The notes: generated by a model not told the origin, from the sequence alone. A stretch of 64,000 nucleotides of DNA from an uncultured Candidatus Saccharibacteria bacterium (GCA_964531785.1 CAZHFF010000001.1:7880-71879); one strand, 5' to 3'; positions 25,680 through 56,718 are shown, counted from the stretch's first letter. A program made the numbers and translations.

Positions 25680-25690
25680 AGAGTCTATGC

Positions 25691-26248: not shown

Positions 26249-26366
26249 ACGTACGTAGTTTATAAGTTCTTAATTACCGTTTTTATCGTGCAACAGCTTA
26301 TGTCTGATGCTTGTAACGGACCATGTCGCAAGCTTAGACCAAGTATGTTGGGTTCGTGGACAATGG

Positions 26367-27779: not shown

Positions 27780-27895
27780 AGGTGTAAGGATTAAGTAATG
27801 TTTCTATGCAGGACCGTGCGTCTAATGCTGTGTTCGTCAGAACAGACAGCACAGTACCTGCCCGCGCGTGCGAGTTGAACTGCTTAGAGCTAGCT

Positions 27896-28339
27896 TCAAC
27901 GATAGAGACAGTACACCTTCGGATGGATGATGCCGCTTGAGAACGCATCATGAAGTGGCCTACTGGGGACGATATGCATTCTGTGCACGTATTGCAGGGC
28001 AATACGTGGCAGCATGGATCGTTTCCATGGTATGCGAAATCGAAATGTTGGTTGCATTGAAAAACGCGCCAGAATTACGAGTAGTATGAGGTACGTAAAT
28101 AGCGCAAACGGAACAACAGCGAGGTCTGCAAACCATTGCCAGGCCGAGTCTATCCACTTGAATGGGCAAATAACCCCTTCGTTATGGAATGACATTGTGC
28201 AGGTCAGGATATCGCCCTCTGCGTGGCTCGTGGACATGAACTGAAAAACACCAAAAAGCTGGAGGCTGACCAGTAGCATAAAAGCCGCCATCATCAAGGT
28301 TCGTGCAAGCTGTTTATGAAAATACGACAAATGGTACAT
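27896..28339 (-). CDS. Hypothetical membrane protein in the cop operon
   Basis: Two TM segments (MMAAFMLLVSLQLFGVF, VVPFALFTYLILLVILA) and a Cys/His-containing loop HAEGDILTCTMSFHNEGVICPF. I recognise no family. Confidence 0.5.
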   Translation of the reverse strand: MYHLSYFHKQLARTLMMAAFMLLVSLQLFGVFQFMSTSHAEGDILTCTMSFHNEGVICPFKWIDSAWQWFADLAVVPFALFTYLILLVILARFSMQPTFRFRIPWKRSMLPRIALQYVHRMHIVPSRPLHDAFSSGIIHPKVYCLYR

Positions 28340-28385
28340 GAAATGTTGTTATCACCTACGCATGCGTGTTCTCGAACGCATCGCC

Positions 28386-28655
28386 TTAACGTCGTTTTAG
28401 CTGATACACTTTTAATATTTCCGCCTGCGCTTTGCGTACCTTGCCACCCTGTATCTGATCGATGACACAGTGCGAGAGGTGGTCTTCAAGCAAGAGGTCC
28501 TCAAGGTTCGAGAGCGCCTGCTTAACGGCGCTCGTTTGCGTAATGATGTCGATGCAGTAGGTGCCCTCCTCGATCATGCGCTGGAGGCCGCGCACCTGTC
28601 CCTCGATGAGTCTAAGCCGCCGCACGAGCTTCGGCCTACCGGTGTCGTGTTTCAT
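28386..28655 (-). CDS. csoR: CsoR/RcnR family copper-sensing transcriptional repressor
   Basis: LVRRLRLIEGQVRGLQRMIEEGTYCIDIITQTSAVKQALSNLEDLLLEDHLSHCV (C-H-C ligand pattern). I prefer start ATG 28655 because the longer ORF would cover its own operator. Confidence 0.9.
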   Translation of the reverse strand: MKHDTGRPKLVRRLRLIEGQVRGLQRMIEEGTYCIDIITQTSAVKQALSNLEDLLLEDHLSHCVIDQIQGGKVRKAQAEILKVYQLKRR

Positions 28656-28662
28656 AGCTTGC

Positions 28663-28691
28663 AGCCTATACCCCCTAGGGGGTATAGTCAA
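28663..28691 (-). promoter_or_regulatory. csoR/cop promoter with an embedded CsoR operator
   Basis: Perfect 20-bp palindrome TATACCCCCTAGGGGGTATA (28667-28686). It lies between TTGACT (-35, 28691-28686, minus strand) and TAGGCT (-10, 28668-28663) with 17-nt spacing. The ATG is 7 nt after the -10. Confidence 0.8.
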
Positions 28692-28784
28692 CCACAGCCT
28701 GGGGATAGTGGAAGATGATCTGGAAGTGACAAAGCCAGCTCTGCATAATAGAAAACACCCGGAGCCATTGCCCCAGGTGCCCGC

Positions 28785-28898
28785 CTAGTCTTTTCGCATG
28801 AGCTCTCGCAGGAGGGTCTTGACCATGTTTCGCCCCAGCACAAGCATCAGCACAGCTGGCATGAGCACCAGCAACAGTACATACAGGTTGATCTCCAT
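28785..28898 (-). CDS. Possible 37-aa hydrophobic micro-protein
   Basis: MEINLYVLLLVLMPAVLMLVLGRNMVKTLLRELMRKD. GAGGA lies 13 nt upstream and a strong promoter ~40 nt upstream. It is very short, so confidence is low. Confidence 0.3.
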   Translation of the reverse strand: MEINLYVLLLVLMPAVLMLVLGRNMVKTLLRELMRKD

Positions 28899-28938
28899 TT
28901 TTCCGCGTGTCCTCAAGCTAAAGCGAAGCCTGTAATTA

Positions 28939-28967
28939 ATTATACCATGCATATGAATAAGCAACAA
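28939..28967 (-). promoter_or_regulatory. Near-consensus extended -10 sigma70 promoter (TTGTTG-17-TGGTATAAT region), minus strand
   Basis: Minus strand reads TTGTTGcttattcatatgcaTGGTATAAT. Confidence 0.55.
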
Positions 28968-28984
28968 GTACCAGAAATAAAGAG

Positions 28985-29013
28985 TTGACACATGCTAATA
29001 GATATTGTAGATT
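28985..29013 (+). promoter_or_regulatory. Near-consensus sigma70 promoter (TTGACA-17-TAGATT), plus strand, back-to-back with the previous one
   Basis: Sequence agagTTGACAcatgctaatagatattgTAGATTc. Confidence 0.5.
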
Positions 29014-29300
29014 CATACGCGTGGTCGCATGACCATGAGGTACGAAAGGAGAAAGCTTTGTCGATCCGTTGTCAAATTCAACCACCGAACGTCGTGCTCG
29101 AGGACCTGTTGGCTGCGCTCGGGACAGGCAAGAGACTCTCTGGGTATTTTGAGACCGATCAGGTCACGATCGGACCCATGGACCATGAGCCACCGCAACG
29201 GCTCGGCGATTTCAGCCGCATCTCGGCACATATACTAAGTGAACGTCTTGTTGCGCTGCCTCAGAATGCGCGGTACCTGGTCATCACAGAGATCCGGTAG
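28992..29300 (+). CDS. Hypothetical protein; the true start may be TTG 29058
   Basis: Track ORF of 102 aa. ATG 28992 lies inside the predicted promoter, whereas TTG 29058 is preceded by AAGGAG (29046-29051). An intrinsic terminator follows. I recognise no family. Confidence 0.4.
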   Translation: MLIDIVDSYAWSHDHEVRKEKALSIRCQIQPPNVVLEDLLAALGTGKRLSGYFETDQVTIGPMDHEPPQRLGDFSRISAHILSERLVALPQNARYLVITEIR

Positions 29301-29324
29301 ATCGGTTCGAAAACGGTAACCCTA

Positions 29325-29354
29325 GAGCTCGGCACGTGCGCCGAGCTCCTTTTT
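29325..29354 (+). terminator. Rho-independent terminator
   Basis: GAGCTCGGC-acgtgc-GCCGAGCTC followed by CTTTTTAT. Confidence 0.75.
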
Positions 29355-29439
29355 ATCGGTGTACTGTCGATGGTTCGTGCTTGCTTAGCGAGCGGATGGT
29401 CTCGGGGTTGCGGCGTCTGCCATGGTACACTGGGTGTCT

Positions 29440-30357
29440 ATGGAGCACGCGCTTGCCATTACCGACCTCAAGAAGACGTACGAGAACGGTACGGTGGCGC
29501 TCTCCGGTATCGACCTTACTGTCGCGAAGGGAGACTTCTTTGCGCTCCTCGGTCCTAACGGTGCCGGTAAGTCAACGACGATCGGCATCATCACCGGTCT
29601 TACGAAAAAGTCCTCCGGAACGGTCGAGGTGTTCGGCACGTCGATCGATGCGGACCACGACAAGGCAAAGACGTACATCGGGCTCGTGCCGCAGGAGATG
29701 AACTTCAATATCTTCGAGAAGGTGGTCGACATCGTCTGTACCCAGGGCGGGTACTATGGTTTGCCAAGGAAGCTCGCGCGCGAGCGTGCGGAGAAGTACC
29801 TGACCGCGCTCGGTCTCTGGGAGAAGCATAACGACAAGAGTCAAACGCTCTCCGGCGGCATGAAACGCCGCCTCATGATAGCCCGGGCACTCGTCCATGA
29901 GCCGGAGCTCCTGATCCTCGACGAGCCGACCGCGGGAGTCGATGTCGAACTCCGGCGTGGTATGTACGACTTTTTGCGCGAACTCACGAAAGCGGGAAAG
30001 ACCATCATCCTCACCACGCACTACCTGGAGGAAGCGGAAGAGCTAGCGAAGGAGCTCGCGATCATCGATACAGGGAAGATCGTCGCGAAGGGCAAGGTCA
30101 AAGAGCTCTTGGCGGGCATGGACACGGCGGTCTATGTGCTTGACCTGGGGCGAGCGGTTACGGAAGGTCAGCTTGCGGTCATAAGCACGTACCGCCCACT
30201 GGCGCGTGATGCTGATACGGTCGAGATCACGGCCACTAAAGCATTGCCGCTCGGTAAGGCTGTGTCGCTGCTCGAGAGGTCGGGCATTCCGGTCGTGAGC
30301 ATCCGGCCGAAGGGGAACAGGCTGGAAGAGCTGTTCGTGAAGCTCACGAAAGGGTAA
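29440..30357 (+). CDS. ABC transporter ATP-binding protein (YadG/DrrA-like, ABC-2 type)
   Basis: Walker A GPNGAGKST, signature LSGGMKRRL, Walker B LLILDEPTAGVD. ATG 29440 lies 8 nt after TACACT (29426-29431). Confidence 0.9.
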   Translation: MEHALAITDLKKTYENGTVALSGIDLTVAKGDFFALLGPNGAGKSTTIGIITGLTKKSSGTVEVFGTSIDADHDKAKTYIGLVPQEMNFNIFEKVVDIVCTQGGYYGLPRKLARERAEKYLTALGLWEKHNDKSQTLSGGMKRRLMIARALVHEPELLILDEPTAGVDVELRRGMYDFLRELTKAGKTIILTTHYLEEAEELAKELAIIDTGKIVAKGKVKELLAGMDTAVYVLDLGRAVTEGQLAVISTYRPLARDADTVEITATKALPLGKAVSLLERSGIPVVSIRPKGNRLEELFVKLTKG

Positions 30358-34566: not shown

Positions 34567-34869
34567 GGAAAGAAGTAACACTCGGAGGAGCGTCTTCTTT
34601 GTCGGGTCATGCAGGAGCACGAGCGTCCGTACACACACAAGAGCCCCACCATCGTCTTACAGAAAAGGCGTACCGTTGCGTTTGAAGCGCAAAATAATGG
34701 CCTAAAAACAGGATGTTTTGTGGAGCGGGCACACGCTCCACCGGCCTATCAGGTGCGGCAGAGCGCGCGCGCCGGTCCCTCTGTGCGCGGACCGACCGAG
34801 ATACGCCGGGCGCAGCAACAAGATCCACAACGAGAAGCCGACCTCCTCGTGCGTTTTGGTATTGACACG

Positions 34870-36261
34870 ATGCTGGGACGCATGGTGACACGCATGCTCG
34901 TCATGCTGCTCCTTTTGCAGCCGGTCTATGTCGCGCTCGCGGTCGAGCTCGATCAGGTACCCGAGGATGTGTCGCTTGCTGAAGCTACTGCGGTTTCGGC
35001 AAGCACCGACCTGGATGAAGGGACGACGGTTGCAGTATCGGACCTCGAGTCAGACGAGGGCGCCGTGGTTTCCGGGGACGAAGCACTGCTGCCAGATAGT
35101 GCTCCTGTACCGAGCGAGCTGGTGCCCCAAGAGCATGCCGACCTGGCGGGCAACGGTACGGCGGATGCTGTGCTGCCATTGTCCGAGGAGGAGGCAGCAA
35201 GTTCGACCGAACCGGACGGAAGTGACGATACGTCATCCGCAGTACTGCCGGATCTGTCGTTGCTTGCGTCCACGACCGTATCCGACGAAGGCGCTCCGTC
35301 AGGCGCAGAGGCTACCGAACCGGGGCACGTGCACGACGCGAGCAGTACGACCGACGCGCTTCCTGCCACATCGGACGAGCACGCGTCGACGACCGAAGAC
35401 CTCCCCGTAGACGAGGTCGAGGAACGATCCAACCGATACACCTTCGGCGAAGGGGATTGTACGCTCGTTGCCGATGGCGAGTTCTACTGCATCGCGACCG
35501 ATGTGCGTCGACATGTTCCGGGGGACCCGCGTGTCTATGCGGAGAAGGACCGTGAAGGCGATCGAGAGATCTACTACTTCGATGGGGTCGAGGTCAAGCG
35601 CATCACCAACAACGGGTACGACGATCTCGCGCCCATGATCGACGCGGACGGGAAGCGTATCGTGTGGCAGGCGATGATCAATGATCGGCTCCAGATCATG
35701 GTACACGAGCTTGGCTCCGGGGTGACGCGGCAGGTGACACAGGGTCGCTCGAACTCTTCGAATCCGTTCATCCTGGGCGATAAGGTCGTTTGGCAGGAGT
35801 GGGTCGATACCAACTGGGAGATCATGCTCGCCGACGTCTCGAGTACCGACGGTGACTACCGGGTGGAGCAACTCACTGACAATGTGGTGCATGACATGTT
35901 CCCACAGCTCTACCAGGGTCTGGTGACGTGGCAGCGGGAAAAGGGTAACAGCTGGGAGGTTATCGTTTACGACCTGCGGACAGGGTCTGCGCACGCGTTG
36001 CCGAAACAGGATGACACCAAGTACGAGAATCCTCGCTTCGTACTCTTGTTCGACTCTCGCCATGAGAACGGCGACGTTGCTACGATCGGGTACGAGCTTG
36101 AATCGGGAGAGATGGTGGAGCTCGGTACGCGCGCCCGTCCCATTCCCGCAAACCCGCAGACCCCCGACGACGAGACACCGGATGCATTGCCTCGCACCGC
36201 GTCGAGCACCTCTGAGCAGAAGCCGGTTCGGGAGGACGGCGACGATGACCAGGGTCTTTAG
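34870..36261 (+). CDS. Secreted protein: signal peptide, ~190-aa acidic Ser/Thr/Asp/Glu-rich spacer, then 4-5 beta-propeller-like ~45-aa repeats
   Basis: MLGRMVTRMLVMLLLLQPVYVALA (signal). Repeats: ..GKRIVWQAMINDRLQIMVHELGSG.., ..GDKVVWQEWVDTNWEIMLADV.., ..QGLVTWQREKGNSWEVIVYDLRTG... The track ORF begins at 34609, but a signal peptide must be N-terminal. Confidence 0.6.
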   Translation: MLGRMVTRMLVMLLLLQPVYVALAVELDQVPEDVSLAEATAVSASTDLDEGTTVAVSDLESDEGAVVSGDEALLPDSAPVPSELVPQEHADLAGNGTADAVLPLSEEEAASSTEPDGSDDTSSAVLPDLSLLASTTVSDEGAPSGAEATEPGHVHDASSTTDALPATSDEHASTTEDLPVDEVEERSNRYTFGEGDCTLVADGEFYCIATDVRRHVPGDPRVYAEKDREGDREIYYFDGVEVKRITNNGYDDLAPMIDADGKRIVWQAMINDRLQIMVHELGSGVTRQVTQGRSNSSNPFILGDKVVWQEWVDTNWEIMLADVSSTDGDYRVEQLTDNVVHDMFPQLYQGLVTWQREKGNSWEVIVYDLRTGSAHALPKQDDTKYENPRFVLLFDSRHENGDVATIGYELESGEMVELGTRARPIPANPQTPDDETPDALPRTASSTSEQKPVREDGDDDQGL

Positions 36262-36267: not shown

Positions 36268-39200
36268 ATGCAGCTTCCTATCATAGAAAAACTGGTCGCT
36301 CGTCTGTGCACGCTCCAAGCGTTCTGCGAAAAGCAGGGCCTCTCTGCCGGGCCGCTTTTCGTTACGGGCGGTGTGCTTTTGGGACTTGTTGGAGTGGTCC
36401 TGGTGCTGTGGCCGTACCTCGGTTTCGACCGTGCCCAAGCTGCCGGGTACCAGATGCAGACGGGGTACTACGTCGGCGATGGCGCATCGAAAGAGATATC
36501 CGGCCTGGGGTTCTCGCCGGAGCTTGTCATCATCAAGGCGGATACGGCAGCCGGTGTTGGTGCGGTCATGAAAACGATCGCAATGCCCCAGAATAACGTT
36601 GCCTACCTCGGCACTGCCACTGCAGATGATGTCGCAGCGCAGATACAGCTCACCGATGATGGTTTCATCGTGACCGGCACGCTCACGGACACGATCAACA
36701 ATCGCTATACGTGGGTCGCGTTCTCCGGTTCCGATTGTTCCTCCGGCGGGACATTTTGTGTCGGCGCGTACACCGGTGACGGGACCGGGTCCAAAGCGAT
36801 AACGACCGGCTTCGATCCCGATCTGGTGTGGGTGAAGCCTGCGACTGCTGCGTTCGCCACATGGCGCTCGAGCACCATGAGCAACAACCACGCGCAGTTC
36901 TTCAGCGCAACCGCAGAGGATACGAGCGGTGTCTACTTCACGACACTCGACAGTAACGGCTTCACCGTCGGGAGTTCCAATAACACCAGTGCGACCCGTT
37001 ACTACTACGTGAGCTTCAAGGAGGCGAGCGGCTTCATTGATGTAGGCACCTACACCGGAAACGGTATCGACAACAGGAGCATCACGGGGGCCGGTTTCAA
37101 GCCCGACTACCTGTTCACCAAGCAAGGTGGCGCTATTGCCGCGGTCGCGAACATAAGCGAAAGTTACGGCGACTCATCGCTCTACTTTACCGATACCGCG
37201 AACCTGGTGAACGCGGTGCAGGCACTCGAAAATGATGGCTTCCAGGTTGGTACGAGCGATCGTGCGAATGCGAACGGCATCACGTATCACTATGCTGCTT
37301 TCGGTGGGGCGACCGCGCACACCTCGACCGGCACCTTCGAGGCGATATCGGGGACCTATCTCGGGAACGGTAATTCGCAGACCATCACGAACCTCGGGTT
37401 CGAACCCGATCTTGTGATCGTTACCGCGAGCGGTACGGAGCACGCGGTCTTCTCCACGAAAATGATGGGTGGTGACTCGACCGCGTACTTTGCGAACAAC
37501 GTCGCTAACTTCGCTGGTGGTATCACGACACTTTCTCCCAATAGCTTCACGGTCGGTAGCCATGCGACCGTGAACAGTCCCGGGGTCGAGTACCACTTTA
37601 CCGCATACGGCAACGCCTGGGACCCAGAGACCCATACCGGCGCCACGGATTTTGTGATCGGTGCATACTACGGCAACGGTATCAATCTGCGCACGCTCAC
37701 GCGGGTGCCGTTTTCGCCCGACATGCTCGTGATCAAACAGAATGGTACCGCGCTCGGTACATGGAGGACGAGCGAACACGTGGGGGACAGTTCAAGTTAT
37801 TTTCATGCACTGGCCGATGGTGTGAACCTGATCGAGGAGTTCACGGGAGACGGCTTTATTCTCGGCAATGCAGCGAACGTGAACACGAGCGGCAGCTTGT
37901 ACTGGTACTTCGGCTTCGCGACGAGCAGCAACTTTTCCGTCGGGACCTATAGCGGGACGGGTGCGCCGCAGAACATCGAGACGCCATTTGAGCCTGATGC
38001 AGCTTGGGTGAAGCGGACGGGTGCCACCCAGGGTGTCATGCGCATGGCGAGCACGACCGGCTCAAGTTCGTACCCGTTCTTGAACGCCGCGACCGTGCAG
38101 ACCGGTGCGATCGAGGGCTTTTACGACGCGGGTTTTGCCGTTGGCGCCGCGCCCGAAGCGAACACGAGCGGTGTCGATAACTACCGGTATGCCGTTTGGC
38201 GCGATACGACCGAGCGGGGCACCTCGACCTACCGAATGCAGACCGGGTACTACGTCGGGGATGGCGGCGCGAAGGAGATCTCGGGCCTCGGATTCACGCC
38301 GGACCTGGTGCTCATTAAGGCAGATACTACGGCCGGTATTGGGGTGACCTGGAAATCGATCGCCATGCCCCAGAACACAGCTGCGTACCTTGGTTCTGCG
38401 ACGGCAGATAATACCGCAGGTCAAATAACCCTTGAGCCCGCCGGGTTCCGGGTCGCGGGCACGAACACGAACACCGCGAACACGCGCTATACGTGGATAG
38501 CATTCACGGGCTCCGATTGTACGGCGACGGGGCAGTTCTGTGTCGGACGCTACAGTGGAGATGGAGCGGGAAGTAAAACAATCGATACCGGCTTTGCACC
38601 TGACCTTGTCTGGGCAAAGCACGCGACCTCGACCGTGGTGCCACCCTCGTGGCGCTCGAGTCTCATGCCGGTCGACTATGCCCAGTTCTACAGTGCGGCT
38701 GCACAAGATACGACAGGCGCCTATTTCCGGACGCTGGACGGGAGCGGCTTTACGGTCGGGAGCAGCAACACCCTCAACTTCGGCGTCTACTACTTTGCTG
38801 CGTTCAAGGAGGTGGCAGGCAGTATCGATGTGGGCACATACCTCGGCAACTCGACGGTCGGCCGGTCGATCACCGGAGTCGGGTTCCGGCCCGACTGGGT
38901 GTTCACCAAGAACTCGACCGGTGCGGTCGCTGCGGTCTACAACCTGCAAGAATCTTATGGTAATCACTCGAGCTACTTCAGTGACACCAATAATCTCACA
39001 GGCGCGATCCAGGCGCTTGAAAGTAATGGGTTCCAGGTGGGGAGTAACAGTACCGCGCACAGCAACGGGGTGACGTACTACTATGCAGCGTTTGGCGGCG
39101 CGGAAGCCCCAACTCCAAGCGGCACGTATCAGATGCTCTCCGGTTCCTATGTCGGAACCGGTGACGTGCGGGTGATCAGTGATCTTGGCTTTGCACCCGA

Positions 39201-42200
39201 CCTCGTCATTGTGAAGGGCAATACCGGACAGCCGGGCATCTTCACGACGCGAATGATGGGAGGGGATTCGAGCGTCTACCTCGATGCGCCGACAGGGAAC
39301 ATAGCGAACGCGATCACGGCGCTTAGGCCCGACAGTTTCGCTCTCGGAACCGATGCGACCGTGAACAGCCCGGGCGTGACGTACCACTGGACCGCGTTCG
39401 GCAATGCATGGAAGCCCGATACCAATTCAGGTGCGGCGGATCTCATGATCGGCGCCTACTACGGCAATGGCCTTGATGGCCGCGACATCGGTCGCTTGCC
39501 GTTCTCGCCCGACATGCTTACCATTAAACGGAACGGTACGACCCAGGGTACCTGGCGTACGAGCGAGCACACGGGCGACTCTTCGAGCTTCTTTACCGCG
39601 ACCGCAGACGGTGCGAACCGTATTCAGGCGTTCAAAACGAGCGCGTTCGAGATAGGAACTAACGCAGAGGTGAACACTGCGAACAGTGTCTACTGGTACT
39701 TTGCGTTCGCCACCTCGAGCACGTTCACGGTCGGCACCTATAGCGGTAGCGGTTCGGCTCAGGATATCGACGTCGGTTTTTCTCCGTACCATACATGGGT
39801 CAAGCACACCGGAGCGACGCGTGCGGTCATGCGCCCTAACACGGTCGTGGGAGACGGGGCACTGCCGTTCATCAATGCATCGCTCGTCACAGGAGCGATC
39901 GCTGGAACCGCAGGCACCGGCTTTTCGGTCGGCACTGCCGCAGAGACCAATACGAGCGGGTCGAATAACTACCGGTATGCCGCATGGAAACAGCTGTCCC
40001 TGGCCCAGGAGCACTACCACTTTCGTGCCGACGACGGAACGGAGGCGAGTGCGTCATCGCTCACTGGCGGCACCGAAGACACGCCGCTTGGTGATGTGCG
40101 CGAAGGACGACCCTACCGATTGCGTCTCGCCGTGTCGAACCGTGCGACCGTTGCGGCAAGCACGACCGGGCTACGGCTCGAGTATGCCGAAAAGGTGACG
40201 ACCTGCAGCGCGGCTAGTTCCTGGACACGGATCGACGCCGACAGTGATGCCTGGAGGATGTACGATTCGCCGAACCTCACCGACGGAGCGGACACGACGA
40301 ACATAGCGCTGGGAGACGGTGGCGTGAGCGATCCCAATCCGACCTTTCTCACCCCGAACGGTGGCGTGAAGGACGCTTCGGACGAGATTTCCCCTATCGC
40401 TCTGAGCGCGGGTGCGTTCGTTGAGGTCGAGTATGCGATAACCCCTACGGTCCACGCGGGGGATGGGACCACGTACTGCTTCCGCGTGTCTGCCCAGGGC
40501 GAGCCGCTCTCGGTGTATGGCACCTACCCGGAGGCGACCTTCGCGGTCCACTTGATCGCGACCACGACCGGGTCGCTCGTGAGCGAGGTGGTCGTGCCAA
40601 GTGAGGATGTGCACGTCGGCGGCGCATTCGTGCTCAGTGATCTGGGTGGAGGTGATACCCATGCGATCACCGATATCGTAGTGACCGAGTCAGGGACGGT
40701 CCATGCATCAACCGGATTGGCGAACGTAAGGCTGTTCTACGAGTACGATACGAGCGCACCCTACGACTGTGCGAGCGAGTCATTTGGTGGCACAGAGACC
40801 CAGTATGGCCTCACCGTAGCGGGCGGCTTTAGCGGTGCGGACGGCACTGCGGCGTTCGCAGGGTCCGTTCAGGCGAGCAGTACGCAATCGGTCTGTCTGT
40901 ACGTGGTGCTTGATGTCGAGGAGTCCGCACTTTCGGGAGAAACGATCGCGCTTTCGATAGCAGAGGCGAGCGACCTGACCGCAAGCAATAATGACCAGGT
41001 GCGTCTTGTAGCAACTCCGCTCGTTATCCCCGGTACGCTTAGCCTCCGTGATGCGCGGCTCACCCAAGCGCACTACCATTTCCGGCTCGACAACGGGAGC
41101 GAGGCGGGGGCATCGAGCGCGACGGCAGGGAGCGAAGACACGCCGCTCATGAACCTGCCGAAGGCTTCACCACGGAGGATCCGGCTCGGCATCTCGAACG
41201 AGGGTTCCGCAACCTCGAGCGCGACGGCGTATCGTCTCGAGTATGCAGAGCGGCAAGGGACCTGTGCCGCGACCGAGGTAGGCTGGACCGATGTCGGGGA
41301 GAGTGGCGGTTCGTGGGACATGTACGATTCGACCAACCTCACCGAAGGCGATGATACGACCAACGTAGCTATCTCGAACGGTGGCGTGAGCGATGAAAAT
41401 ACCGATTACCTGGTGGTGAACGGTGGCGTGAAGGACACCTCATCAGAGACCGGAGCCCTCGTGCTCGGTCCGACCGAGTTCGTCGACCTTGAATACTCGG
41501 TGGTGGCCCTCTCTGGAGCGTCCGATGGTGCGACCTACTGTTTCCGGGTGACCGATGCCGGGGTGCCGCTCAAGGACTACTGGACCTACCCCGAGGCGAC
41601 CATAGCCGCCGATGTCCTCGTTTCGGCGCTCGGCGCACATCAGAGTGCGGTCAAGGCGAGCTCGACCTCGGTCCTCGTCGCGGGTGCGTGGGTGATCGCT
41701 GACCAGGCCGGTTCACGCAATGTGACGTCGGTCACGCTTACCGAGAGTGGAAGCATTAATGCGGCCGCCGACCTTGCGAACATACGTCTGCACTATGAGC
41801 TTGATACGTCCGCCCCGTATGACTGCGCGAGCGTCTCCTACAGTGGCGGCTCGCCACAGTTCGGCACGACCCAAGGTGCGTTCACCGGACCCAATGGCAC
41901 TGCGACCTTCACCGATACCGTGGGCATCAGTACCACGCAAACGCTCTGCCTGTTTGCGGTCATGGACGTGACCTCGAGCGCTGAAGATGGGGCAACGATA
42001 GCGCTTATGATCGCCGACCCGAGCGCCAATGTCGTCGTTTCGAGCGGTACCGTGAACCCGAACACGAGCGTTGCGCCGACCGGTTCCACGACGGTCCAAA
42101 AGGCGACTCTATCGCTCGTGCACTACCACTTCAGGAATGATGATGGGTCGGAAGCGCTTGCGACCAGTAAGACGGGCGGCGTCGAGGATGTTCCCGTAAG

Positions 42201-45200
42201 TGGCGCACAGCCGGGCCTGGTCGAACGTCTGCGCCTCGGCGTTTCGAATGAAGGGAGCACCACCTCCGATCAGACCACACTGCTTCTCCAGTATGCGGAG
42301 AAGGTATCGACCTGTGGTGCTGCCGATGCTTGGCAGGAAGTGGGTACCCCGGGTTCGCACTGGAGCCTCAGTGAATCGGCATACCTGACCGACGGGAGTG
42401 ACACGACGAACATAGCGCTTGCACTGGGCGGTGTGACCGACGAGAATCCGAGCTTCCTCACCCCAAATGGTGGCGTCCACGAGCACCGCCCGCTTTCGGA
42501 CGAGCTCGTTCTTGATGATGACGAGTTCGTTGAGCTCGAGTACGTGATCGAACCGAACACCGATGCGCTTCCCGGCACGACGTACTGTTTCCGGGTTACC
42601 GATCAGTACGGGCCACTGCCAAGCTACCTATCCTACCCGGAAGCAACGCTCAAGGCCAAGCGCGACTTTTTCATACAGCGCGGCGTGGTCGACATAGCGA
42701 ACGGCACGAGCACCGCCTCGATCCTGGCCGGGACGCATTACACGGCACCTGGGGCGAGCACCTCGGCCTTCATCAGGATCACGAATGCGCTCGCGACCGG
42801 AGCAGGCGCGACCGCTGGAGGCGGTACCCAGAACGCGAATAACGTCACCGTGGGTATCCTAAACCCGAGCGACATCGAGAGCGGCGTGACCTTCATACGT
42901 TCGGGTACATCGAACAGTACGCGCATATATTGGGAATTGATCGAGTATGTCGGGTTGCCGGGCGGTGACAACGAGATCAAAGTGCGTGCACAGGAACGGG
43001 CTACCTATGGGAGTAGCGACCTTCAGGTTACTACCGGTACGGTTTCCGGTGTGAACGAGGACGGTCAGGTCGTGGTCTTCATCACGGGCCAGCAGAACCC
43101 GGCCGCGAACACGACAGGCTACCACGCCGGGCTTTCGACCGCCGAGTGGAACGGCGGCAGTGACACGGCGACGTTCACCCGTGGAGCGACCACGTCGGTT
43201 GCCGCGGTCGTGAGCTATGCGGTCGTTGAGTTTACCGGCGCCAACTGGCGCATACAGCGCAGTGAGCATACCTACGTGACGCCCGGCGCGACCGAGACCG
43301 AGACCATTACCCCGGTGAACAGCGTCGCGCGCGCGTTCCTGCACACCCAGAAGCGGACCGGGGCGAACCAGGTCGACGAGCTGGGACATCAGGTGTGGCT
43401 CGAGGGCGTCGGCGAGGTACGCTACAGCATACCCTCGACTGCCGCCTTGGCGAGCACGCACGTGTCGGTCGCATGGGTCATCGAGAACACGCAGACCAAC
43501 GGTTCGCCGATGGTCGTATACCGTTCGAACAGTTCGCAGGGGGCAGGTGGTCCTGAGCCCTCCACGTATCCGATCTCCATAAACGGCACAGTATCTGCCG
43601 TGAATAATGCGTCGATCTTCATGAACATGTGGGGACTTGGAGACACCCTGAACCATCCGCGTGCGATCATGGGTGCCGGCATCACCTCGACGACGTTTTA
43701 CGAGCTCTGGATATCGGACACCGGCAGCGGCCGCGCGTACCGCACTGAGGTCGTCGACTGGCCGACCGCCGAGCTTTCGTTCGAGCAGTACTACTATGCA
43801 TGGTATGTGGATAACGGGCTTCTGACACCGAGCGACATGTGGCCTGCCGGACCCTCAGGAATTGGCGAGAACACCGCGATCACCTCGTACGATAAACCGC
43901 CAAGCTCTGGAGAGGTGCTCCGTCTGCGCATGGCGGTTCGGGTGCATGGGTCGAGCATTTCACGCGAAACCAAATCATGGAAGCTGCAGTACGGCGTGCG
44001 CACCGCGACCTGTGACGCTGTAGATATGTGGTTCGATACGGGCGACAGTGCGTCGACGACCGCGCTCTGGCGCGGGTACAATGCGGTACCTGAGGACGGT
44101 ACGCCACTCTCGACAGATCCGCCCACCCTGGGTGACCTGAAGCTCTCGGTCTCGATAACGGGACGCGCGGGTACCTATGAGGAGGCGAACCCGTCCGCAC
44201 CGAACCCGTACAAGACAGCGATCGGCGAGAGTATCGAGTACGACTGGATACTTGAAGCGAACGGTGTGCCGGATGAGACGAGCTACTGTTTCCGCATGGT
44301 TGAGGACAGCGACGACCTGTTCGGAACGTACACGTACTACCCGACGCTGACTACAGCCGGGTTCGAGGTCGAACAGAAAGCCTGGCGCTGGTACGATGAC
44401 GAGGAAAGCCTGACGCCTGTCGTGCCGCTTGCGGCGACCAATACCGCCCCGGTCGACGTTAGCATGGGGGCGGTACTCAAGCTCCGGGTGCTCTTACAGG
44501 AGCTTGCTGGTAAGGCGGGGAGCGGGGTCAAGTTCAAGCTGCAGTTCTCGGAGTCCTCCGACCCAGGAACCTTCACCGACGTCGCGTCACAGGATGCGTG
44601 CACGACCGGGTCGCGCTTCTGTTACACTGATGGTGCGGGTGAGGACAATGCGACGATAACCGCGAGCGTCATATTCGGTGCAGACAGCTGTGTCGCGGGG
44701 GTGGGTCCCGGATGTGGTACCCATAACGAGCTTCCCTATACCCCGGAGGTGGTGGGTGAGGTGGGTACGACGACCACGGACTTGGCAGGCACGACGGTCA
44801 CGCTCCTCCACACGTACACCGACCCGATCTTCATCGTTGAAGCGATAACCGGAGATAGTGGCGGCGGAAGTGCGAACCGGCCAGCGGCGGCGATGATTAC
44901 CGCGACCACCACGTCGAGCTTCACGGTGCGTATCCAGGAGACCGACGATGAAGCGGACGACCATGGTGAGGAGCTCATCGCCTATCTCGTCATGGAGCGC
45001 GGTGCGTACCTGCTTCCCGACGGGCGGCGCGTCGACGTGAACTCGACGACCACGCTCGCGTACCGGAACAATGTGCTGCCGGGGACCGGAAACGATACCT
45101 GCGCGTTCGAACAGGCGTTCGACGAATCGCCGATCGTCTACACATCGCTCCAGAGCAACAACAATGCGGGCACGCCCGACTTCCTGACCGCGACCCAGGA

Positions 45201-46305
45201 GAGCATTTCTGCCGAAGCGTTCTTATGCGCGATCGAGGTGCCTGATGCGGTAAACACGGCACCTACTGCCGCTGAGACGATCGGGTGGGTGGCGATCGAG
45301 GGAGGTTCCTTCAAGAACGGCGGTATCGCGCTCCTTGCGACCACGACCGGGACGGTCATTACGGGTTGGGGCAATACGCCATGGTACGAGTATCTCTTCC
45401 CCTATGCGTACTTCACGCAGGTACCAGGCATCGTCGCAAGCAAGCAGACACGCTTTGGTGCCGATGGTGGGTGGGTCCGGTACGCTAACGTAAGCCCGGT
45501 ATCCGCCCGGTTCGCTATCGATGAGGCTGATGGTGGGAACCGCGTGCACACAGCGGAAACGGTCGGCATTCTCGGCTTCTCGCAGAGCGGGCTCCTGTAC
45601 CGGAGCACGAGCTCAAGCTGGGTCTTCCCGGCGTACGCCAAGCAGGAGTACGAGTTCACCATTACGCAGTATGACGCCCGCCCGGGCCGCACGTACTTCT
45701 TCCGGCTCTATGACGTTGACGCTGATCTTCCGGTCATGGCCTCGTCGACCGTAGCCGGTTACCCCTCGCTCGTCACTGAGAGCGGGACGCTATCGTTCAC
45801 GGTCACCGGTCTCCCCATGGGGACCACGACCGAAGGCGTCACGACGGACGTGACTGCGAACGCGTTTTCGATCCCGTTTGGCAACCTTGCGCTGGGGGTG
45901 GATCGGACCGCGGGGCAACGGCTGAGCGTAAGCACGAACGCGACGCGGGGGTACCAGGTCTTCCTCTATGAACTCTTTGACATGACCGCCGGTGTCGGGG
46001 CGGTCATCCAGGACATCACTTCGACCAATGCGTCGCCACAGCCCTGGAGCACTGCGTGCACCATAGGTGCAGCAAGTTGCTTTGGTTACCACGCGGGTGA
46101 CAACACGCTCGCCAGTGGATCTACCAGGTTCCTCGTTGACGACACGTTCGCGGCACTTACCACCGCACCCGCCGAGGTCGCGTACAGTAGCGTGCCGGTC
46201 GTCAATGAGCATACAGACATTATATATAGGATACGCGTGGGGAGCAGCCAACCTGCGGGCTACTATGAGAGCCGCATGGGCTACGTGATCGTACCGGTGT
46301 TCTAG
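36268..46305 (+). CDS. Giant (3,345 aa) N-terminally membrane-anchored multi-repeat surface protein with a C-terminal domain shared with the 58242..59438 product
   Basis: Single uninterrupted ORF. TM at aa ~28-50 (GPLFVTGGVLLGLVGVVLVLWPYLGF), 12 ~100-aa modules, five HYHFR-type domains, C-terminus ..YYESRMGYVIVPVF. It starts 6 nt after the previous stop. Confidence 0.85.
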   Translation: MQLPIIEKLVARLCTLQAFCEKQGLSAGPLFVTGGVLLGLVGVVLVLWPYLGFDRAQAAGYQMQTGYYVGDGASKEISGLGFSPELVIIKADTAAGVGAVMKTIAMPQNNVAYLGTATADDVAAQIQLTDDGFIVTGTLTDTINNRYTWVAFSGSDCSSGGTFCVGAYTGDGTGSKAITTGFDPDLVWVKPATAAFATWRSSTMSNNHAQFFSATAEDTSGVYFTTLDSNGFTVGSSNNTSATRYYYVSFKEASGFIDVGTYTGNGIDNRSITGAGFKPDYLFTKQGGAIAAVANISESYGDSSLYFTDTANLVNAVQALENDGFQVGTSDRANANGITYHYAAFGGATAHTSTGTFEAISGTYLGNGNSQTITNLGFEPDLVIVTASGTEHAVFSTKMMGGDSTAYFANNVANFAGGITTLSPNSFTVGSHATVNSPGVEYHFTAYGNAWDPETHTGATDFVIGAYYGNGINLRTLTRVPFSPDMLVIKQNGTALGTWRTSEHVGDSSSYFHALADGVNLIEEFTGDGFILGNAANVNTSGSLYWYFGFATSSNFSVGTYSGTGAPQNIETPFEPDAAWVKRTGATQGVMRMASTTGSSSYPFLNAATVQTGAIEGFYDAGFAVGAAPEANTSGVDNYRYAVWRDTTERGTSTYRMQTGYYVGDGGAKEISGLGFTPDLVLIKADTTAGIGVTWKSIAMPQNTAAYLGSATADNTAGQITLEPAGFRVAGTNTNTANTRYTWIAFTGSDCTATGQFCVGRYSGDGAGSKTIDTGFAPDLVWAKHATSTVVPPSWRSSLMPVDYAQFYSAAAQDTTGAYFRTLDGSGFTVGSSNTLNFGVYYFAAFKEVAGSIDVGTYLGNSTVGRSITGVGFRPDWVFTKNSTGAVAAVYNLQESYGNHSSYFSDTNNLTGAIQALESNGFQVGSNSTAHSNGVTYYYAAFGGAEAPTPSGTYQMLSGSYVGTGDVRVISDLGFAPDLVIVKGNTGQPGIFTTRMMGGDSSVYLDAPTGNIANAITALRPDSFALGTDATVNSPGVTYHWTAFGNAWKPDTNSGAADLMIGAYYGNGLDGRDIGRLPFSPDMLTIKRNGTTQGTWRTSEHTGDSSSFFTATADGANRIQAFKTSAFEIGTNAEVNTANSVYWYFAFATSSTFTVGTYSGSGSAQDIDVGFSPYHTWVKHTGATRAVMRPNTVVGDGALPFINASLVTGAIAGTAGTGFSVGTAAETNTSGSNNYRYAAWKQLSLAQEHYHFRADDGTEASASSLTGGTEDTPLGDVREGRPYRLRLAVSNRATVAASTTGLRLEYAEKVTTCSAASSWTRIDADSDAWRMYDSPNLTDGADTTNIALGDGGVSDPNPTFLTPNGGVKDASDEISPIALSAGAFVEVEYAITPTVHAGDGTTYCFRVSAQGEPLSVYGTYPEATFAVHLIATTTGSLVSEVVVPSEDVHVGGAFVLSDLGGGDTHAITDIVVTESGTVHASTGLANVRLFYEYDTSAPYDCASESFGGTETQYGLTVAGGFSGADGTAAFAGSVQASSTQSVCLYVVLDVEESALSGETIALSIAEASDLTASNNDQVRLVATPLVIPGTLSLRDARLTQAHYHFRLDNGSEAGASSATAGSEDTPLMNLPKASPRRIRLGISNEGSATSSATAYRLEYAERQGTCAATEVGWTDVGESGGSWDMYDSTNLTEGDDTTNVAISNGGVSDENTDYLVVNGGVKDTSSETGALVLGPTEFVDLEYSVVALSGASDGATYCFRVTDAGVPLKDYWTYPEATIAADVLVSALGAHQSAVKASSTSVLVAGAWVIADQAGSRNVTSVTLTESGSINAAADLANIRLHYELDTSAPYDCASVSYSGGSPQFGTTQGAFTGPNGTATFTDTVGISTTQTLCLFAVMDVTSSAEDGATIALMIADPSANVVVSSGTVNPNTSVAPTGSTTVQKATLSLVHYHFRNDDGSEALATSKTGGVEDVPVSGAQPGLVERLRLGVSNEGSTTSDQTTLLLQYAEKVSTCGAADAWQEVGTPGSHWSLSESAYLTDGSDTTNIALALGGVTDENPSFLTPNGGVHEHRPLSDELVLDDDEFVELEYVIEPNTDALPGTTYCFRVTDQYGPLPSYLSYPEATLKAKRDFFIQRGVVDIANGTSTASILAGTHYTAPGASTSAFIRITNALATGAGATAGGGTQNANNVTVGILNPSDIESGVTFIRSGTSNSTRIYWELIEYVGLPGGDNEIKVRAQERATYGSSDLQVTTGTVSGVNEDGQVVVFITGQQNPAANTTGYHAGLSTAEWNGGSDTATFTRGATTSVAAVVSYAVVEFTGANWRIQRSEHTYVTPGATETETITPVNSVARAFLHTQKRTGANQVDELGHQVWLEGVGEVRYSIPSTAALASTHVSVAWVIENTQTNGSPMVVYRSNSSQGAGGPEPSTYPISINGTVSAVNNASIFMNMWGLGDTLNHPRAIMGAGITSTTFYELWISDTGSGRAYRTEVVDWPTAELSFEQYYYAWYVDNGLLTPSDMWPAGPSGIGENTAITSYDKPPSSGEVLRLRMAVRVHGSSISRETKSWKLQYGVRTATCDAVDMWFDTGDSASTTALWRGYNAVPEDGTPLSTDPPTLGDLKLSVSITGRAGTYEEANPSAPNPYKTAIGESIEYDWILEANGVPDETSYCFRMVEDSDDLFGTYTYYPTLTTAGFEVEQKAWRWYDDEESLTPVVPLAATNTAPVDVSMGAVLKLRVLLQELAGKAGSGVKFKLQFSESSDPGTFTDVASQDACTTGSRFCYTDGAGEDNATITASVIFGADSCVAGVGPGCGTHNELPYTPEVVGEVGTTTTDLAGTTVTLLHTYTDPIFIVEAITGDSGGGSANRPAAAMITATTTSSFTVRIQETDDEADDHGEELIAYLVMERGAYLLPDGRRVDVNSTTTLAYRNNVLPGTGNDTCAFEQAFDESPIVYTSLQSNNNAGTPDFLTATQESISAEAFLCAIEVPDAVNTAPTAAETIGWVAIEGGSFKNGGIALLATTTGTVITGWGNTPWYEYLFPYAYFTQVPGIVASKQTRFGADGGWVRYANVSPVSARFAIDEADGGNRVHTAETVGILGFSQSGLLYRSTSSSWVFPAYAKQEYEFTITQYDARPGRTYFFRLYDVDADLPVMASSTVAGYPSLVTESGTLSFTVTGLPMGTTTEGVTTDVTANAFSIPFGNLALGVDRTAGQRLSVSTNATRGYQVFLYELFDMTAGVGAVIQDITSTNASPQPWSTACTIGAASCFGYHAGDNTLASGSTRFLVDDTFAALTTAPAEVAYSSVPVVNEHTDIIYRIRVGSSQPAGYYESRMGYVIVPVF
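36448..38229 (+). repeat. Super-repeat copy 1 (six ~100-aa modules, aa 61-654 of the giant protein)
   Basis: Starts YQMQTGYYVGDGASKEISGLGFSPELVIIKADTAAG and ends ..GVDNYRYAVWRDTTERGTST. Collinear with copy 2. Confidence 0.8.
38230..40011 (+). repeat. Super-repeat copy 2 (six modules, aa 655-1248)
   Basis: Starts YRMQTGYYVGDGGAKEISGLGFTPDLVLIKADTTAG and ends ..GSNNYRYAAWKQLSLAQE. Confidence 0.8.
40012..42640 (+). repeat. HYHFR-type tandem units (starts at 40012, 41071 and 42121); the first two are ~350 aa two-domain units
   Basis: HYHFRADDGTEA.., HYHFRLDNGSEA.., HYHFRNDDGSEA... Each has RLRL..SN, Y/LRLEYAE/LLLQYAE, TC, TTN[IV]A, TYCFRV and YPEAT. Confidence 0.8.
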
Positions 46306-46359: not shown

Positions 46360-49300
46360 ATGCGCGAACGACCAGTTCCAGTACCCGTTGAGGAGGCCCA
46401 GCCTACGCGCGGCTTGGTCTTGAGCGAGATACCGACGAGCGGTGAGCTTGAAGCGCTCACAAGTAGTGAGCTGCTCGCACGCATGCGCTCGCTCGAGGAT
46501 TGGAAGGGGGCCGCGCACATGCTCATCACCACAGAGGAGCTCGACGCAGATCCGAAGCAGCGGTCGGCGGTGGAGACCCGAGTAGCCGAACTCGTGAGCG
46601 AGCTGGTGAAGCAGGGCAAGCTCTATCCGGGACAGGAGTACGTGATTGATCCTCTGACCGGGGTCGGAGCGTGGCTTCCGCACCAAGCGTCAAGCGAGGC
46701 ACAAGGTGTGGAAACGACCGATCTGTCGCCGAGTCCATCGAAAGGGGTACCAAAGCCGGAGCGTGTCATATCGACCGAGCATAAGCTGCTCGAGGTGCTC
46801 GGCTTCAAGAAGCAACAGAAAGACCTCGTGAACGCGTCGAACGGCGAACTGATCGCGGCGGCGCAGGAGCTCGCGCACCTCGACCCGAACATATTCAAGG
46901 TGGACGTCGGCGCGTTTCCGCACGACCTCGATGCGCTCACGGTCGAAGACCTGACCTCGCGGCCGGATGATGCGCCGGATGTCATGCGTCGCAAGATCGC
47001 GCTCAGAAAGGAGCTCGTCGATTGGATAGCTGCTGAAACGACCCACTTCGAGCAGCGTGAAGTATCTGGAGCACCCGAGTTGTCGCGCTCGGGAGCGCCC
47101 GCTGCGGTGCCACCGACCACCGAAGCCGGGGTGCCGCCCGTGCCGCCTAAGGCGGAAGGTAGTACCGAGCCGCATGAACCGAGCGAGACCGAACGTGCCG
47201 CGTACCAGGCGCGGGTTCGTGACGAGCTGGATCACCTGCCTCGGGAAGAGCTCGGTTCACCTGAGCAGCTCGCAGCGAACGAGCTCTTGGGTCGCTTGGA
47301 ACGTCAGACTGATCCTAAACGTATTGATGACCTGCGTGTCGGTATCGACAAGAACTTGAAACGTATGCGCGAGCGCATCAGCGCGCGCCGGGGTACGAGC
47401 ACTACGGGCGAGTCCGGCACAGCCGTAGTGCCGGAACCGGTCGCGACCGAAGACCTGGAAACGGTCGCGCGTTCGCTCGAGTCGCTCACAGACGTAGATG
47501 AGATCCGTACCGGACGCAAGCGCCTCGTGCTCATGTATGCCGACCTCGTCCTCAATGCGCTCCATACGCACAGTACGACCGATGCGCACTTCGCAGAACC
47601 AATGGGGATAACGCTCATGCGCAAGATCGTCGAGAAGCTCCGGAGCACGACCGAAATGACCGAGCAGACCGATCGGCTGGCCGAACTCATTTTGGAAGCG
47701 ATAGAGCGCAATCATGAAGAGATCACTCGGTATGGCATAGTGTTGCCGCCGTTGCCGAAACTCCCCGCGATACCTGAGACACCAACCGAACCCATGTCCG
47801 ATGCGGCCGCGGAAGGAGTGGTCGAAGAACCGCCAGCAGCGGAGCCGACCGCAGAACCAGCGGCACCCCGGCTGGCGGCAGAGACTGCGGGTGAGACGAA
47901 GCCAGACGTGAGCGAAACGTTCGAGACGGGCCTCGAGCAGGCGCTCGAACATAACGCGGCACTCCCCAATGCGGACACCTCCTCGGCTGACCGTTCGGTG
48001 AACATAACCTACAACATCGGTGATGGTGCCCAGGTCGGTGTCGTTGCCCATGAGGGTGTACACAACAGCATGATAGGTATAGCCGCGCAGCCGGGTACGG
48101 CGGCGGGTGTACCTGCCGAACGGACCGAACCATCGGTGCCGGAGCGGGTGCAGCAGACTTCGTCGGCGCCTGAGGCAGTGACCGAAAAACAGGATGCTCC
48201 AACAGCTCTGCCAGCGCATGAGCCGACCCCCGTAGCAGAACCGGCACCGGAGACGCCCACACAACCCAAGGCAGTACCTGCGGGTGCACCGGAGACAGAT
48301 GCCGCAGAAACCGCACCGACCCCGCCGGAGACAGCGTCCGATCGGACGGGCGAGGAAGCAGCTGCTCTCGCTGCACCAGCAGACATGGTGCCTAGCGAAG
48401 CCGCCGGAGAATCAGTATCGTCGCCTGGTGTGACTGCACCAGAAGCCACCCCGGCTGAGCCGACACCTGAAGCAGCTCCATCAGATCCGTACCAGCAGAC
48501 ACGTGCCGAGTACCACGAGTTCACGAGCCGGCTCCGTGAGGCGGGGAAGGAGTATCAGGCGGCGCTTATGGCGCTTACGACCCGGCGCAACGAGCTAGGT
48601 TTGCTGAAGCGGGCAAAAAATGCAAAGGAGCTCGTTCTGCTTGCGAAGGTTAGAGATGAGAAAGAGGCGGCGTATGACGCCCTCCTCGGCGAGGTTCGCA
48701 CGAAACGCACCGAGCGGGTCACAAAGATCGTCGAGGCCGTGAAAGCGCGACGCGAACGACGAGGCGATCTGGAAGAGGCGGTCTCGCGAGATCCCGCGGC
48801 GCATATCCTTGCGTGGCACGAGGCGATCCTCTACGCGCAGACTATGCGTCACGCAGCGACCATAGAGCAGCTGCAAGGCGTTGGGGCCCAAAAGGAACAT
48901 GGTCCGCTGGTACGGCGCATGCAAGCGGTCGCCGAGTACTACCGTAAGATACCTCTTGCGAACAAGCTCACCCTCCGCGTCGTTGGGGCGGGTGCGATCG
49001 GTGCGGGAGCAGCGCTCCTTGCCGCACCGACAGCAGCGGCTGCGGCGTTCTGGGCAGGTGGCGCAGCGGCCACCCGCGCAGGCGTCGGTTTCCTGACCGG
49101 TATGGGGGCAGCCGTCGGTACGAAGAAAGGACTCGATTCCGTTATCGAGAAGCGGGCCGCGCGAAAGACCGGGGAGCTCAAGAAGGATTTTGCCGGCAAG
49201 CACCTTGCAGATACACGGAAACAGTTGCTCGCGATACGCAAGCAAGAGCGCCAGCTGAAAACCGGTGCAACGGTGGTCGCGGGAGCAGCAGCGTTCGGCG

Positions 49301-56705: not shown

Positions 56706-56718
56706 TTCGCTCGTACAC

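Follow-up and report, generated by a model that had tools for sequence, protein, structure and literature searches.

The window analysed here is a stretch of 64,000 nucleotides (nt) from an uncultured Candidatus Saccharibacteria bacterium (CAZHFF010000001.1:7880-71879), and it carries a giant open reading frame (ORF) encoding 3345 amino acids (aa). Behind a short leader, the encoded protein opens with two tandem copies (blocks A and B) of a unit built of six modules of about 100 aa each. The initial annotation, made from the sequence alone, had described the doubling as ancient and had proposed that the twelve modules form a stalk, a chain of beta-sandwich-like beads. We find that the doubling is indeed old and well preserved, and that the modules are better described as an ordered set whose predicted structural unit is a body of three. 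The features of this region, in window coordinates, are the following:

36268–46305, forward strand: giant ORF, 3345 aa; collinear full-length orthologues of 3336–3358 aa, 56–64% identical, occur in Patescibacteria metagenome-assembled genomes (MAGs)
36268–36447, forward strand: N-terminal leader, aa 1–60; read from the sequence as a charged start, a ~25-residue hydrophobic stretch and A-Q-A|A abutting module 1
36448–38229, forward strand: block A, aa 61–654; modules 1–6, in halves 1-2-3 and 4-5-6
36448–36747, forward strand: module 1, aa 61–160; GSDC...G-x-FC cysteine pair at its end (module 1/2 boundary)
36748–37029, forward strand: module 2, aa 161–254; best match to Pfam DUF7361 and to PHROG 19943
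37030–37335, forward strand: module 3, aa 255–356; best match to PHROG 24898 'tail fiber protein'
37336–37644, forward strand: module 4, aa 357–459; delimited by the module alignment
37645–37926, forward strand: module 5, aa 460–553; delimited by the module alignment
37927–38229, forward strand: module 6, aa 554–654; includes a 10-residue linker
38230–39999, forward strand: block B, aa 655–1244; modules 7–12, paralogue of block A (58% aa, 63% nt identity)
38230–38529, forward strand: module 7, aa 655–754; 67% identical to module 1
38530–38817, forward strand: module 8, aa 755–850; 60% identical to module 2
38818–39126, forward strand: module 9, aa 851–953; 63% identical to module 3
39127–39435, forward strand: module 10, aa 954–1056; 51% identical to module 4
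39436–39717, forward strand: module 11, aa 1057–1150; 63% identical to module 5
39718–39999, forward strand: module 12, aa 1151–1244; 53% identical to module 6

The two blocks align from end to end, exactly at the boundaries drawn in the initial annotation (aa 61–654, nt 36448–38229, and aa 655–1248, nt 38230–40011): 349 of the 597 columns of the global alignment are identical (58%), 6 columns contain gaps, and the alignment scores 1853, as against -14 +/- 22 when the sequences are shuffled (z ~86). Note that module 12 itself ends at about aa 1244; the next repeat family begins at aa 1241 and already takes in the last 4–7 residues of the second block so delimited. The division of each block into six modules also holds. 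Twelve G-x-Y-x-G motifs (at aa 66, 166, 260, 362, 465, 559, 660, 760, 856, 959, 1062 and 1156) and twelve regularly spaced F-x-P-[DEY] motifs agree with a 12-way alignment of modules of 94–103 aa, in which module i and module i+6 are 51–67% identical and all other pairs 21–41%. BLASTP between non-equivalent modules, run on overlapping 300-aa chunks, still gave E-values of 1e-10 to 1e-35. The longer core motif that had been read from the sequence is not strict: module 9 has GNS, module 12 has FSPYH, and S/A-F replaces G-F in modules 4, 10 and 11. A 3+3 periodicity inside the block was sought by identity (module 1 against 4, 2 against 5, 3 against 6) and none was found; the three-module unit described below is one of architecture and of models, not of residual sequence similarity.

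At the nucleotide level, the codon-aligned copies are 62.7% identical (70%, 73% and 45% at codon positions 1, 2 and 3), the longest in-register identical run is 18 nt, and the nonsynonymous and synonymous divergences (dN and dS) are 0.35 and 1.69, giving a dN/dS of ~0.2. Identity is highest at the start (80% over codons 1–30, 74% over codons 31–60, ~77% over the first 180 nt) and amounts to 46–73% further along. The high identity at the start accounts for the roughly 70% that had been estimated by eye over the first ~230 nt; the block as a whole is more diverged.

By sequence, the giant protein is a member of the Pfam family DUF7483/DUF7361. The match to DUF7483 (PF24299), a 330-residue model, reaches 159.5 bits for a gathering cutoff of 27 (E 1.5e-46, 7 stretches), the best stretch aligning profile positions 6–327 of 330 with aa 657–945, that is, with modules 7–9. 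DUF7361 (PF24060), a 95-residue model of one module, scores 47.6 bits for a cutoff of 29.5 (E 2.2e-12) over the whole protein, no single stretch passing by itself (the best spans profile positions 1–32 of 95). A search with block A retrieved more than 650 proteins, mostly of 750–1000 aa and from MAGs of Patescibacteria (the candidate phyla radiation, CPR); the best 120 cover 98–100% of the 594 residues at 42–54% identity, and all close homologues bear the same Pfam labels. A HMMER search with the double block (1188 aa) returned 3279 clusters (50%-identity level) at E<=1e-3, including 542 at E<=1e-30, and a scan of one genome per species gave 74 loci (handles beginning with L below; those beginning with P denote proteins), nearly all labelled Parcubacteria, Saccharibacteria, Paceibacterota, Dojkabacteria/WS6, Falkowbacteria and similar. 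Eleven loci (L011, L018, L021, L032, L035, L050, L052, L056, L061, L071 and L072) are titled 'uncultured Gammaproteobacteria' or 'Pseudomonadales'; they bear typical Patescibacteria-type DUF7483 genes, at a G+C of 36–40% in the four for which it was computed (including L011, L021 and L032), and the taxonomy assigned to these co-assembly bins seems unreliable.

We then read the order of the modules in ~95 proteins by means of hidden Markov models (HMMs) specific to each of the six positions. Nearly all of these proteins, including that of the window, read either 123456 or, as here, 123456123456, and because the position-specific HMMs read 123456 almost throughout, the modules form a fixed, ordered set of position-specific elements rather than interchangeable repeats. 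The window protein fits the family pattern in its other traits as well, with its leader, its modules in the order 1-2-3-4-5-6 and its GSDC...G-x-FC pair. The few variants found were 123123456 (L064, L075 and P0140), 453453453456 (P0134), 1123456-(~99 aa)-123456 (six proteins) and a triple block (P0121). It follows from such variants that 1-2-3 and 4-5-6 behave as sub-units, in agreement with the three-module length of the Pfam model.

The Pfam family itself is thus already known, doubled blocks are frequent in public genomes, and the window gene has close full-length orthologues. Exact-sequence look-ups of the giant protein and of the neighbouring glutamate dehydrogenase matched no record. A full-text search of the literature for DUF7483 returned no paper mentioning the name, and the ordered six-module block, its three-module sub-unit lacking a solved relative, the arrays of three-module units shared with phages and the concerted evolution described below appear to be undescribed.

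The uninterrupted 123456123456 form is present in at least 20 of the species-level genomes scanned. Orthologues of the giant gene were found in L004 (3336 aa, 62% identity), L006 (3358 aa, 64%), L008 (3346 aa, 57%), L010 (3353 aa, 56%) and L005 (63%, truncated at the contig end). In a neighbour-joining tree of the blocks (200 bootstraps), the A blocks of the window, L004, L005 and L006 form one clade and their B blocks another, each with a bootstrap value of 100. Because A groups with A and B with B, the duplication predates the split of these four lineages, whose proteins are now ~63% identical. The comparisons indicate that the copies arose by in-frame tandem duplication of exactly one 1782-nt unit in the ancestor of the gene and of its full-length orthologues, and that purifying selection has since maintained both of them, gene conversion having played no recent part in the window lineage. 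The proposal of an old duplication maintained in frame is thereby borne out, on the strength of the saturated dS, the dN/dS of ~0.2 and the two fully supported clades in four genomes.

The family as a whole behaves less quietly. Within-protein identity between blocks A and B is bimodal at the nucleotide level: 60–78% in eleven genomes and 98–99% in eight (L010, L011, L013, L020, L021, L026, L032 and L058), with exact runs of up to 1767 nt in the latter. The L025 protein is a mosaic, 79.5% identical between blocks overall and containing a 587-nt identical run. In L010, whose orthologue has the same length as the window gene, the blocks are 99% identical, as against 66% in its sister L008, so that homogenisation of pre-existing copies is the simplest reading, whether gene conversion was responsible or unequal crossing-over led to loss and re-duplication. 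The mosaic and the 98–99% identical blocks bear what looks like the signature of gene conversion. Elsewhere in the family, then, the unit has been duplicated or homogenised repeatedly. Finally, L001 and L013 (100%/99.7% identity), and likewise L016 and L020 (92–95%), differ by exactly one block of 596–598 aa, which reflects either a true copy-number polymorphism or a collapse in short-read assembly.

These last cases bear on the possibility that the doubling in the window is itself recent or results from repeat expansion during assembly. Near-identical blocks with long exact runs in eight other genomes, and near-identical proteins with one block or two, make repeat handling by assemblers a real issue in this family. 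The window copies are too diverged for such an artefact: they are 63% identical in nucleotides and 45% at third codon positions, and share no identical run longer than 18 nt. In addition, the A/B split is common to three independently assembled genomes, and independently assembled orthologues have the same architecture. We regard this explanation as refuted for the window, its residual probability being negligible, in keeping with the initial annotation, which had dismissed it.

We next considered the structure of the unit, using AlphaFold2 models of block A (594 residues) and of modules 1–3 alone, built from a 53-sequence alignment. Both models were confident: block A reached a predicted local distance difference test score (pLDDT) of 94.8 and a predicted template modelling score (pTM) of 0.92, and modules 1–3 a pLDDT of 96.7 and a pTM of 0.93. 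Each module is predicted to consist of eight beta strands and to contain no helices, in line with the beta-sandwich-like modules that had been proposed. The image of beads, by contrast, is not supported. A pTM above 0.9 over 594 residues means that the relative positions of the modules are confidently predicted, unlike those of beads on flexible linkers, and the models point to a six-module block made of two rigid three-module bodies. Models of phage proteins from BFVD point the same way, since they superpose on three modules with a root-mean-square deviation of 3.4 A over 298 columns and on six modules with only ~10 A, as would be the case if the three-module body were the rigid unit. The 330-residue length of the Pfam model, the variants 123123456 and 453453453456 and a phage protein of exactly three modules (see below) also favour three-module bodies.

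The structural search that accompanied the modelling was less informative. Neither the six-module nor the three-module model gave a convincing match in a Foldseek search of the PDB, the best template modelling (TM) scores being 0.28–0.32, and the three-module model had no PDB match at E<=1e-3; a profile of the block likewise matched no PDB chain sequence at E<=1. Frequent entries in the Foldseek lists were capsid proteins with double or triple jelly rolls, baseplate and tailspike proteins of phages, cupins and pseudo-threefold domains, at chance-level scores. Because all scores were at that level, we left the fold class unassigned.

The initial annotation had also tentatively mentioned a similar G-F-x-P-D-L-V-W-I-K motif in phage structural proteins, and this link proved sound. 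The modules match PHROG 24898 ('tail fiber protein'; E 1.2e-40, 6 stretches) and PHROG 19943 ('virion structural protein'; E 2.2e-27), and 55 BFVD models match at E<=1e-3 (best E 1.6e-42), one of them, from an uncultured phage, being named 'DUF7483 domain-containing protein'. By tblastn, relatives were found in 29 phage genomes at 24–30% identity, mostly those of Pelagibacter podophages, together with some Synechococcus and Roseobacter phages. The pelagiphage HTVC011P gp37 ('tail fiber protein') comprises exactly three modules and is encoded in a tail-fibre gene cluster; a virion structural protein of Phage C72C1 has 6+3 modules; and QBP06135 of Synechococcus phage S-B68 (1444 aa), encoded beside baseplate genes, gave 6+2 matches, one of them below significance (independent E-value, iE, 1.6). 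These matches indicate that the modules are distantly homologous to tail-fibre or virion proteins of pelagiphages and cyanophages. By contrast, none of the 2.9 million viral contigs of IMG/VR yielded a relative when scanned with the Patescibacteria-type motifs.

This similarity raises the possibility that the giant gene comes from a phage, as a prophage or phage-like gene for a tail fibre with the repeats as its shaft. The PHROG and BFVD matches speak for it, and the genomic setting speaks against it. The neighbours of the giant gene are housekeeping genes (glutamate dehydrogenase, a hybrid histidine kinase, P-type ATPases, peptidases and ABC transporters), and no phage genes lie around it. 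Immediately upstream lies the following gene:

34609–36261, forward strand: TolB-like beta-propeller gene, 550 aa; ends 6 nt upstream of the giant gene

The synteny of this propeller gene is kept in every locus that holds an orthologue of the giant gene. Because of the housekeeping neighbours, the syntenic propeller gene and the lack of an IMG/VR relative, the giant gene is cellular and not viral. Moreover, identity to the phage proteins is only 24–30%, no relative of the CPR-type block was found among the 2.9 million viral contigs, and a Sec-type leader would be unexpected on a virion protein. The giant protein is therefore not a phage tail fibre: it has the sequence similarity, and its gene does not lie in a structural gene cluster. 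A phage origin of the gene is, in our view, very improbable. The propeller protein is probably a functional partner of the giant protein, encoded in the same operon; its gene is conserved at the same position in L003–L006, L008, L010 and L068, at 45–66% identity.

The leader bears on where the protein acts. Its hydrophobic stretch, read by eye from the sequence, spans aa ~27–52 and is followed by AQA|A, and the family consensus retains A-x-A-A immediately before module 1. It is likely a Sec signal peptide, or possibly a signal anchor. A cysteine pair, C97/C104 (GSDC...G-x-FC) in the giant protein, is invariant family-wide at the junction of modules 1 and 2, and would fit an extracellular location.

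Taking these elements together, we favour, as an interpretation somewhat more likely than not, a secreted and rigid segment of a surface fibre that makes putative contact with a ligand. The protein would be exported through Sec, given its hydrophobic leader and the conserved A-x-A site ahead of module 1, and the four three-module bodies would form the rigid N-terminal segment of a very long fibre on the surface of a Patescibacteria-type cell. The array would contact a surface ligand, probably a glycan carried by a partner cell or by the envelope of the producing cell itself, and doubling of the block would double both reach and avidity. Much of bacterial diversity belongs to the Patescibacteria, whose cultivated representatives live attached to other cells; beyond type IV pili, little is known of how they recognize and hold their hosts. 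Contact with a surface ligand seems the most likely function because the only annotated relatives of the modules are phage tail-fibre and virion proteins and because cultivated Patescibacteria are host-attached. Epibiotic growth of a cultivated Saccharibacterium has been reported to require several adhesins and glycan-binding envelope proteins (PMC10633639).

Several points weigh against this interpretation. The rigidity of the three-module bodies is a modelled property, read from pTM only, and the phage names such as 'tail fiber protein' are computational annotations. Cleavage of the leader or its retention as a membrane anchor would set the position of the blocks, at the far end of the fibre in the first case and near the membrane in the second. 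When orthologues are compared, the blocks vary no more than the remainder of the protein (52–69% against 47–75% identity), and this even conservation lacks the mark of diversifying selection that a host-recognition tip would be expected to bear; together with conservation across phyla, it fits a stalk or an anchor in the cell's own envelope equally well. The binding site, the ligand and the localisation are all putative. Finally, the assignment of the window to Patescibacteria is based on its nearest relatives (L006 and the orthologues in Parcubacteria MAGs); the G+C of the window is 59% and that of L006 58%, and the neighbouring genes of L006 are 77–78% identical to those of the window.

A passive stalk, as first proposed, is the foremost of the other explanations, and one that we hold possible while not expecting it to be correct. 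The twelve modules would be a mere spacer holding the functional C-terminal two-thirds of the protein off the membrane, and doubling would lengthen the spacer. The array directly follows the N-terminal hydrophobic segment, which would make it membrane-adjacent if that segment is an uncleaved anchor; conservation of the blocks is even and moderate, without hypervariable patches; copy number among close relatives changes by exactly one block, as a length ruler would; and many members bear variable domains after the block (Big_13, MG2, PG_binding, dockerin neighbours). However, the six modules are position-specific, 21–41% identical and in a fixed order across phyla, which argues for a specific assembled structure, whereas spacers of giant adhesins usually consist of many near-identical, interchangeable Ig-like repeats. 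The smallest members of the family comprise hardly more than the leader, one block and ~150 residues, so that the block itself must be the functional part, and one phage protein is made up solely of three modules. The conserved A-x-A site, for its part, argues for cleavage of the leader.

Alternatively, the three-module units might attach to a polymer in the wall of the producing cell and so hold secreted proteins on its surface, two blocks giving a giant protein a firmer grip; the triple SLH repeat of Gram-positive surface proteins would be the logical analogue. In this respect, thousands of secreted proteins that otherwise vary have the block in common, at a fixed position after the leader, its 45–55% identity across Patescibacteria phyla is easier to reconcile with a conserved self-ligand than with a variable host ligand, and phages that must bind cell surfaces use the same module. 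Yet neither sequence nor fold comparison linked the block to SLH, LysM, WxL or other wall-binding domains, and some members have it far from the N-terminus or behind other domains. We consider an envelope anchor of this kind unlikely.

A bolder reading can also be formulated, which we regard as doubtful. The three-module DUF7483 unit might represent an unseen fold arrangement, with three diverged beta-sandwich modules packed as a rigid pseudo-trimer that acts like the trimeric receptor-binding tip of a phage, and arrays of such units (six modules as a rule, twelve here) might be the general means by which Patescibacteria grip glycans on the surface of host cells, their reach and avidity being quickly tuned as unequal recombination and gene conversion add, remove or homogenise 1.8-kb blocks. 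If this were true, phages and episymbionts would share one attachment module. Apart from function, a domain of unknown function is presented here as an ordered six-module unit, ~50% identical across Patescibacteria phyla and found in thousands of protein clusters, and the family offers a natural series for the concerted evolution of large intragenic repeats, from 60% to full identity with one mosaic intermediate. The result for the window alone is modest: one more member of the family, with an old and well-preserved doubling.

The blocks are followed in the giant protein by a second repeat family:

39988–42657, forward strand: second, unrelated repeat family; ~2.5 copies of a ~353-aa unit starting HYHFR-x-DDGSE

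Its copies (aa 1241–1593, 1594–1943 and 1944–2130) are 46–50% identical to one another, and no Pfam, PHROG or NCBIfam match was found for the repeat. Weaker copies lie near aa 2502–2680, related starts (W-R-W-Y-D-D-E and Y-Y-A-W-Y-V-D-N) occur further on, and an HYHFR unit also separates the blocks in P0121. The C-terminal ~175 residues (aa ~3170–3345, window 45400–46305) end in ...AGYYESRMGYVIVPVF and resemble the C-termini of many otherwise different members (P0121, P0124–P0126, P0128 and P0131). In shorter family members the C-terminal domain is of another type and contains two W-x-L-like motifs; a WxL wall-binding domain, suspected from these motifs, received no support from Pfam, and neither type of C-terminal domain has a Pfam match at E<=1. 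At the same threshold, Pfam gave only one sub-threshold match, to PKD_5, for the C-terminal domain, the HYHFR repeat and two middle segments together.

Directly 3' of the giant gene lies a 1769-aa ORF (window 46360–51669), for which no Pfam, PHROG or NCBIfam match, leader peptide, internal repeat or similarity to the giant protein was found; in L004 there was only a weak partial match. Further on, two ORFs (55473–56705 and 56473–58056) that have no Pfam match overlap by 233 nt, which may reflect a wrong start codon or a frameshift; their homologues lie near DUF7483 genes in at least 9 other loci, including L015, L019, L022, L023, L051, L054 and L066. A 642-aa ORF (61221–63149) carries a dockerin type I domain at its C-terminus, and in L001 a dockerin gene lies directly 3' of the DUF7483 gene; a dockerin protein has been reported to be essential for the epibiotic growth of a cultivated Saccharibacterium (PMC10633639). 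On the other side of the giant gene, positions 20791–30000 hold a gene cluster that encodes two copper-type P-type ATPases with HMA domains together with a DsbD_2/HMA/cupredoxin protein. The G+C content falls to 51–53% at 24–30 kb, over part of this cluster, as against ~60% elsewhere in the window, and the cluster may have been acquired horizontally as a metal-resistance island. Searches of the window for tRNAs and Rfam families gave no match.

Among known structures, the best whole-unit Foldseek matches of the three-module model, over ~300 columns, were the C-terminal domain of PCSK9 and the APC-beta domain of a Plasmodium perforin-like protein, both pseudo-threefold beta folds of three subdomains; the similarity lies below significance. 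The giant repeat adhesins of the RTX/Bap/SiiE/Ebh type, which are comparable in how they would work, are very large secreted surface proteins that build their length from tandem Ig-like beta-sandwich repeats of ~100 residues, whose number changes by recombination. Their repeats are interchangeable, whereas the modules of the giant protein are strongly diverged and position-specific, and the latter also differs by its duplicated six-module unit and its predicted rigid three-module bodies. Indeed, no Pfam or NCBIfam match to Ig-like, cadherin, Big or FN3 families was found anywhere in the 3345 aa, and since it contains no recognizable Ig-like or FN3 domain, the giant protein is not a classical Ig-repeat adhesin.

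The closest comparisons are with the phage proteins and with the Pfam family. Phage tail-fibre and virion proteins contain the same ~100-residue module, with its G-x-Y-x-G-x-G ... F-x-P-D-hydrophobic-K motif, and likewise arrange it in runs of three and six. However, they are only 15–30% identical to the modules of the giant protein and, as judged from the absence of pattern matches in IMG/VR, their arrays have neither the Patescibacteria-type position-specific order nor the GSDC...FC pair; they also have no leader peptide and are encoded in structural gene clusters, whereas the giant gene encodes a leader and has a cellular context. With the Pfam family DUF7483/DUF7361, the relation is one of direct membership by sequence. 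That family is annotated only as a domain of unknown function, and its six-module order, its doubling and its concerted evolution were worked out here.

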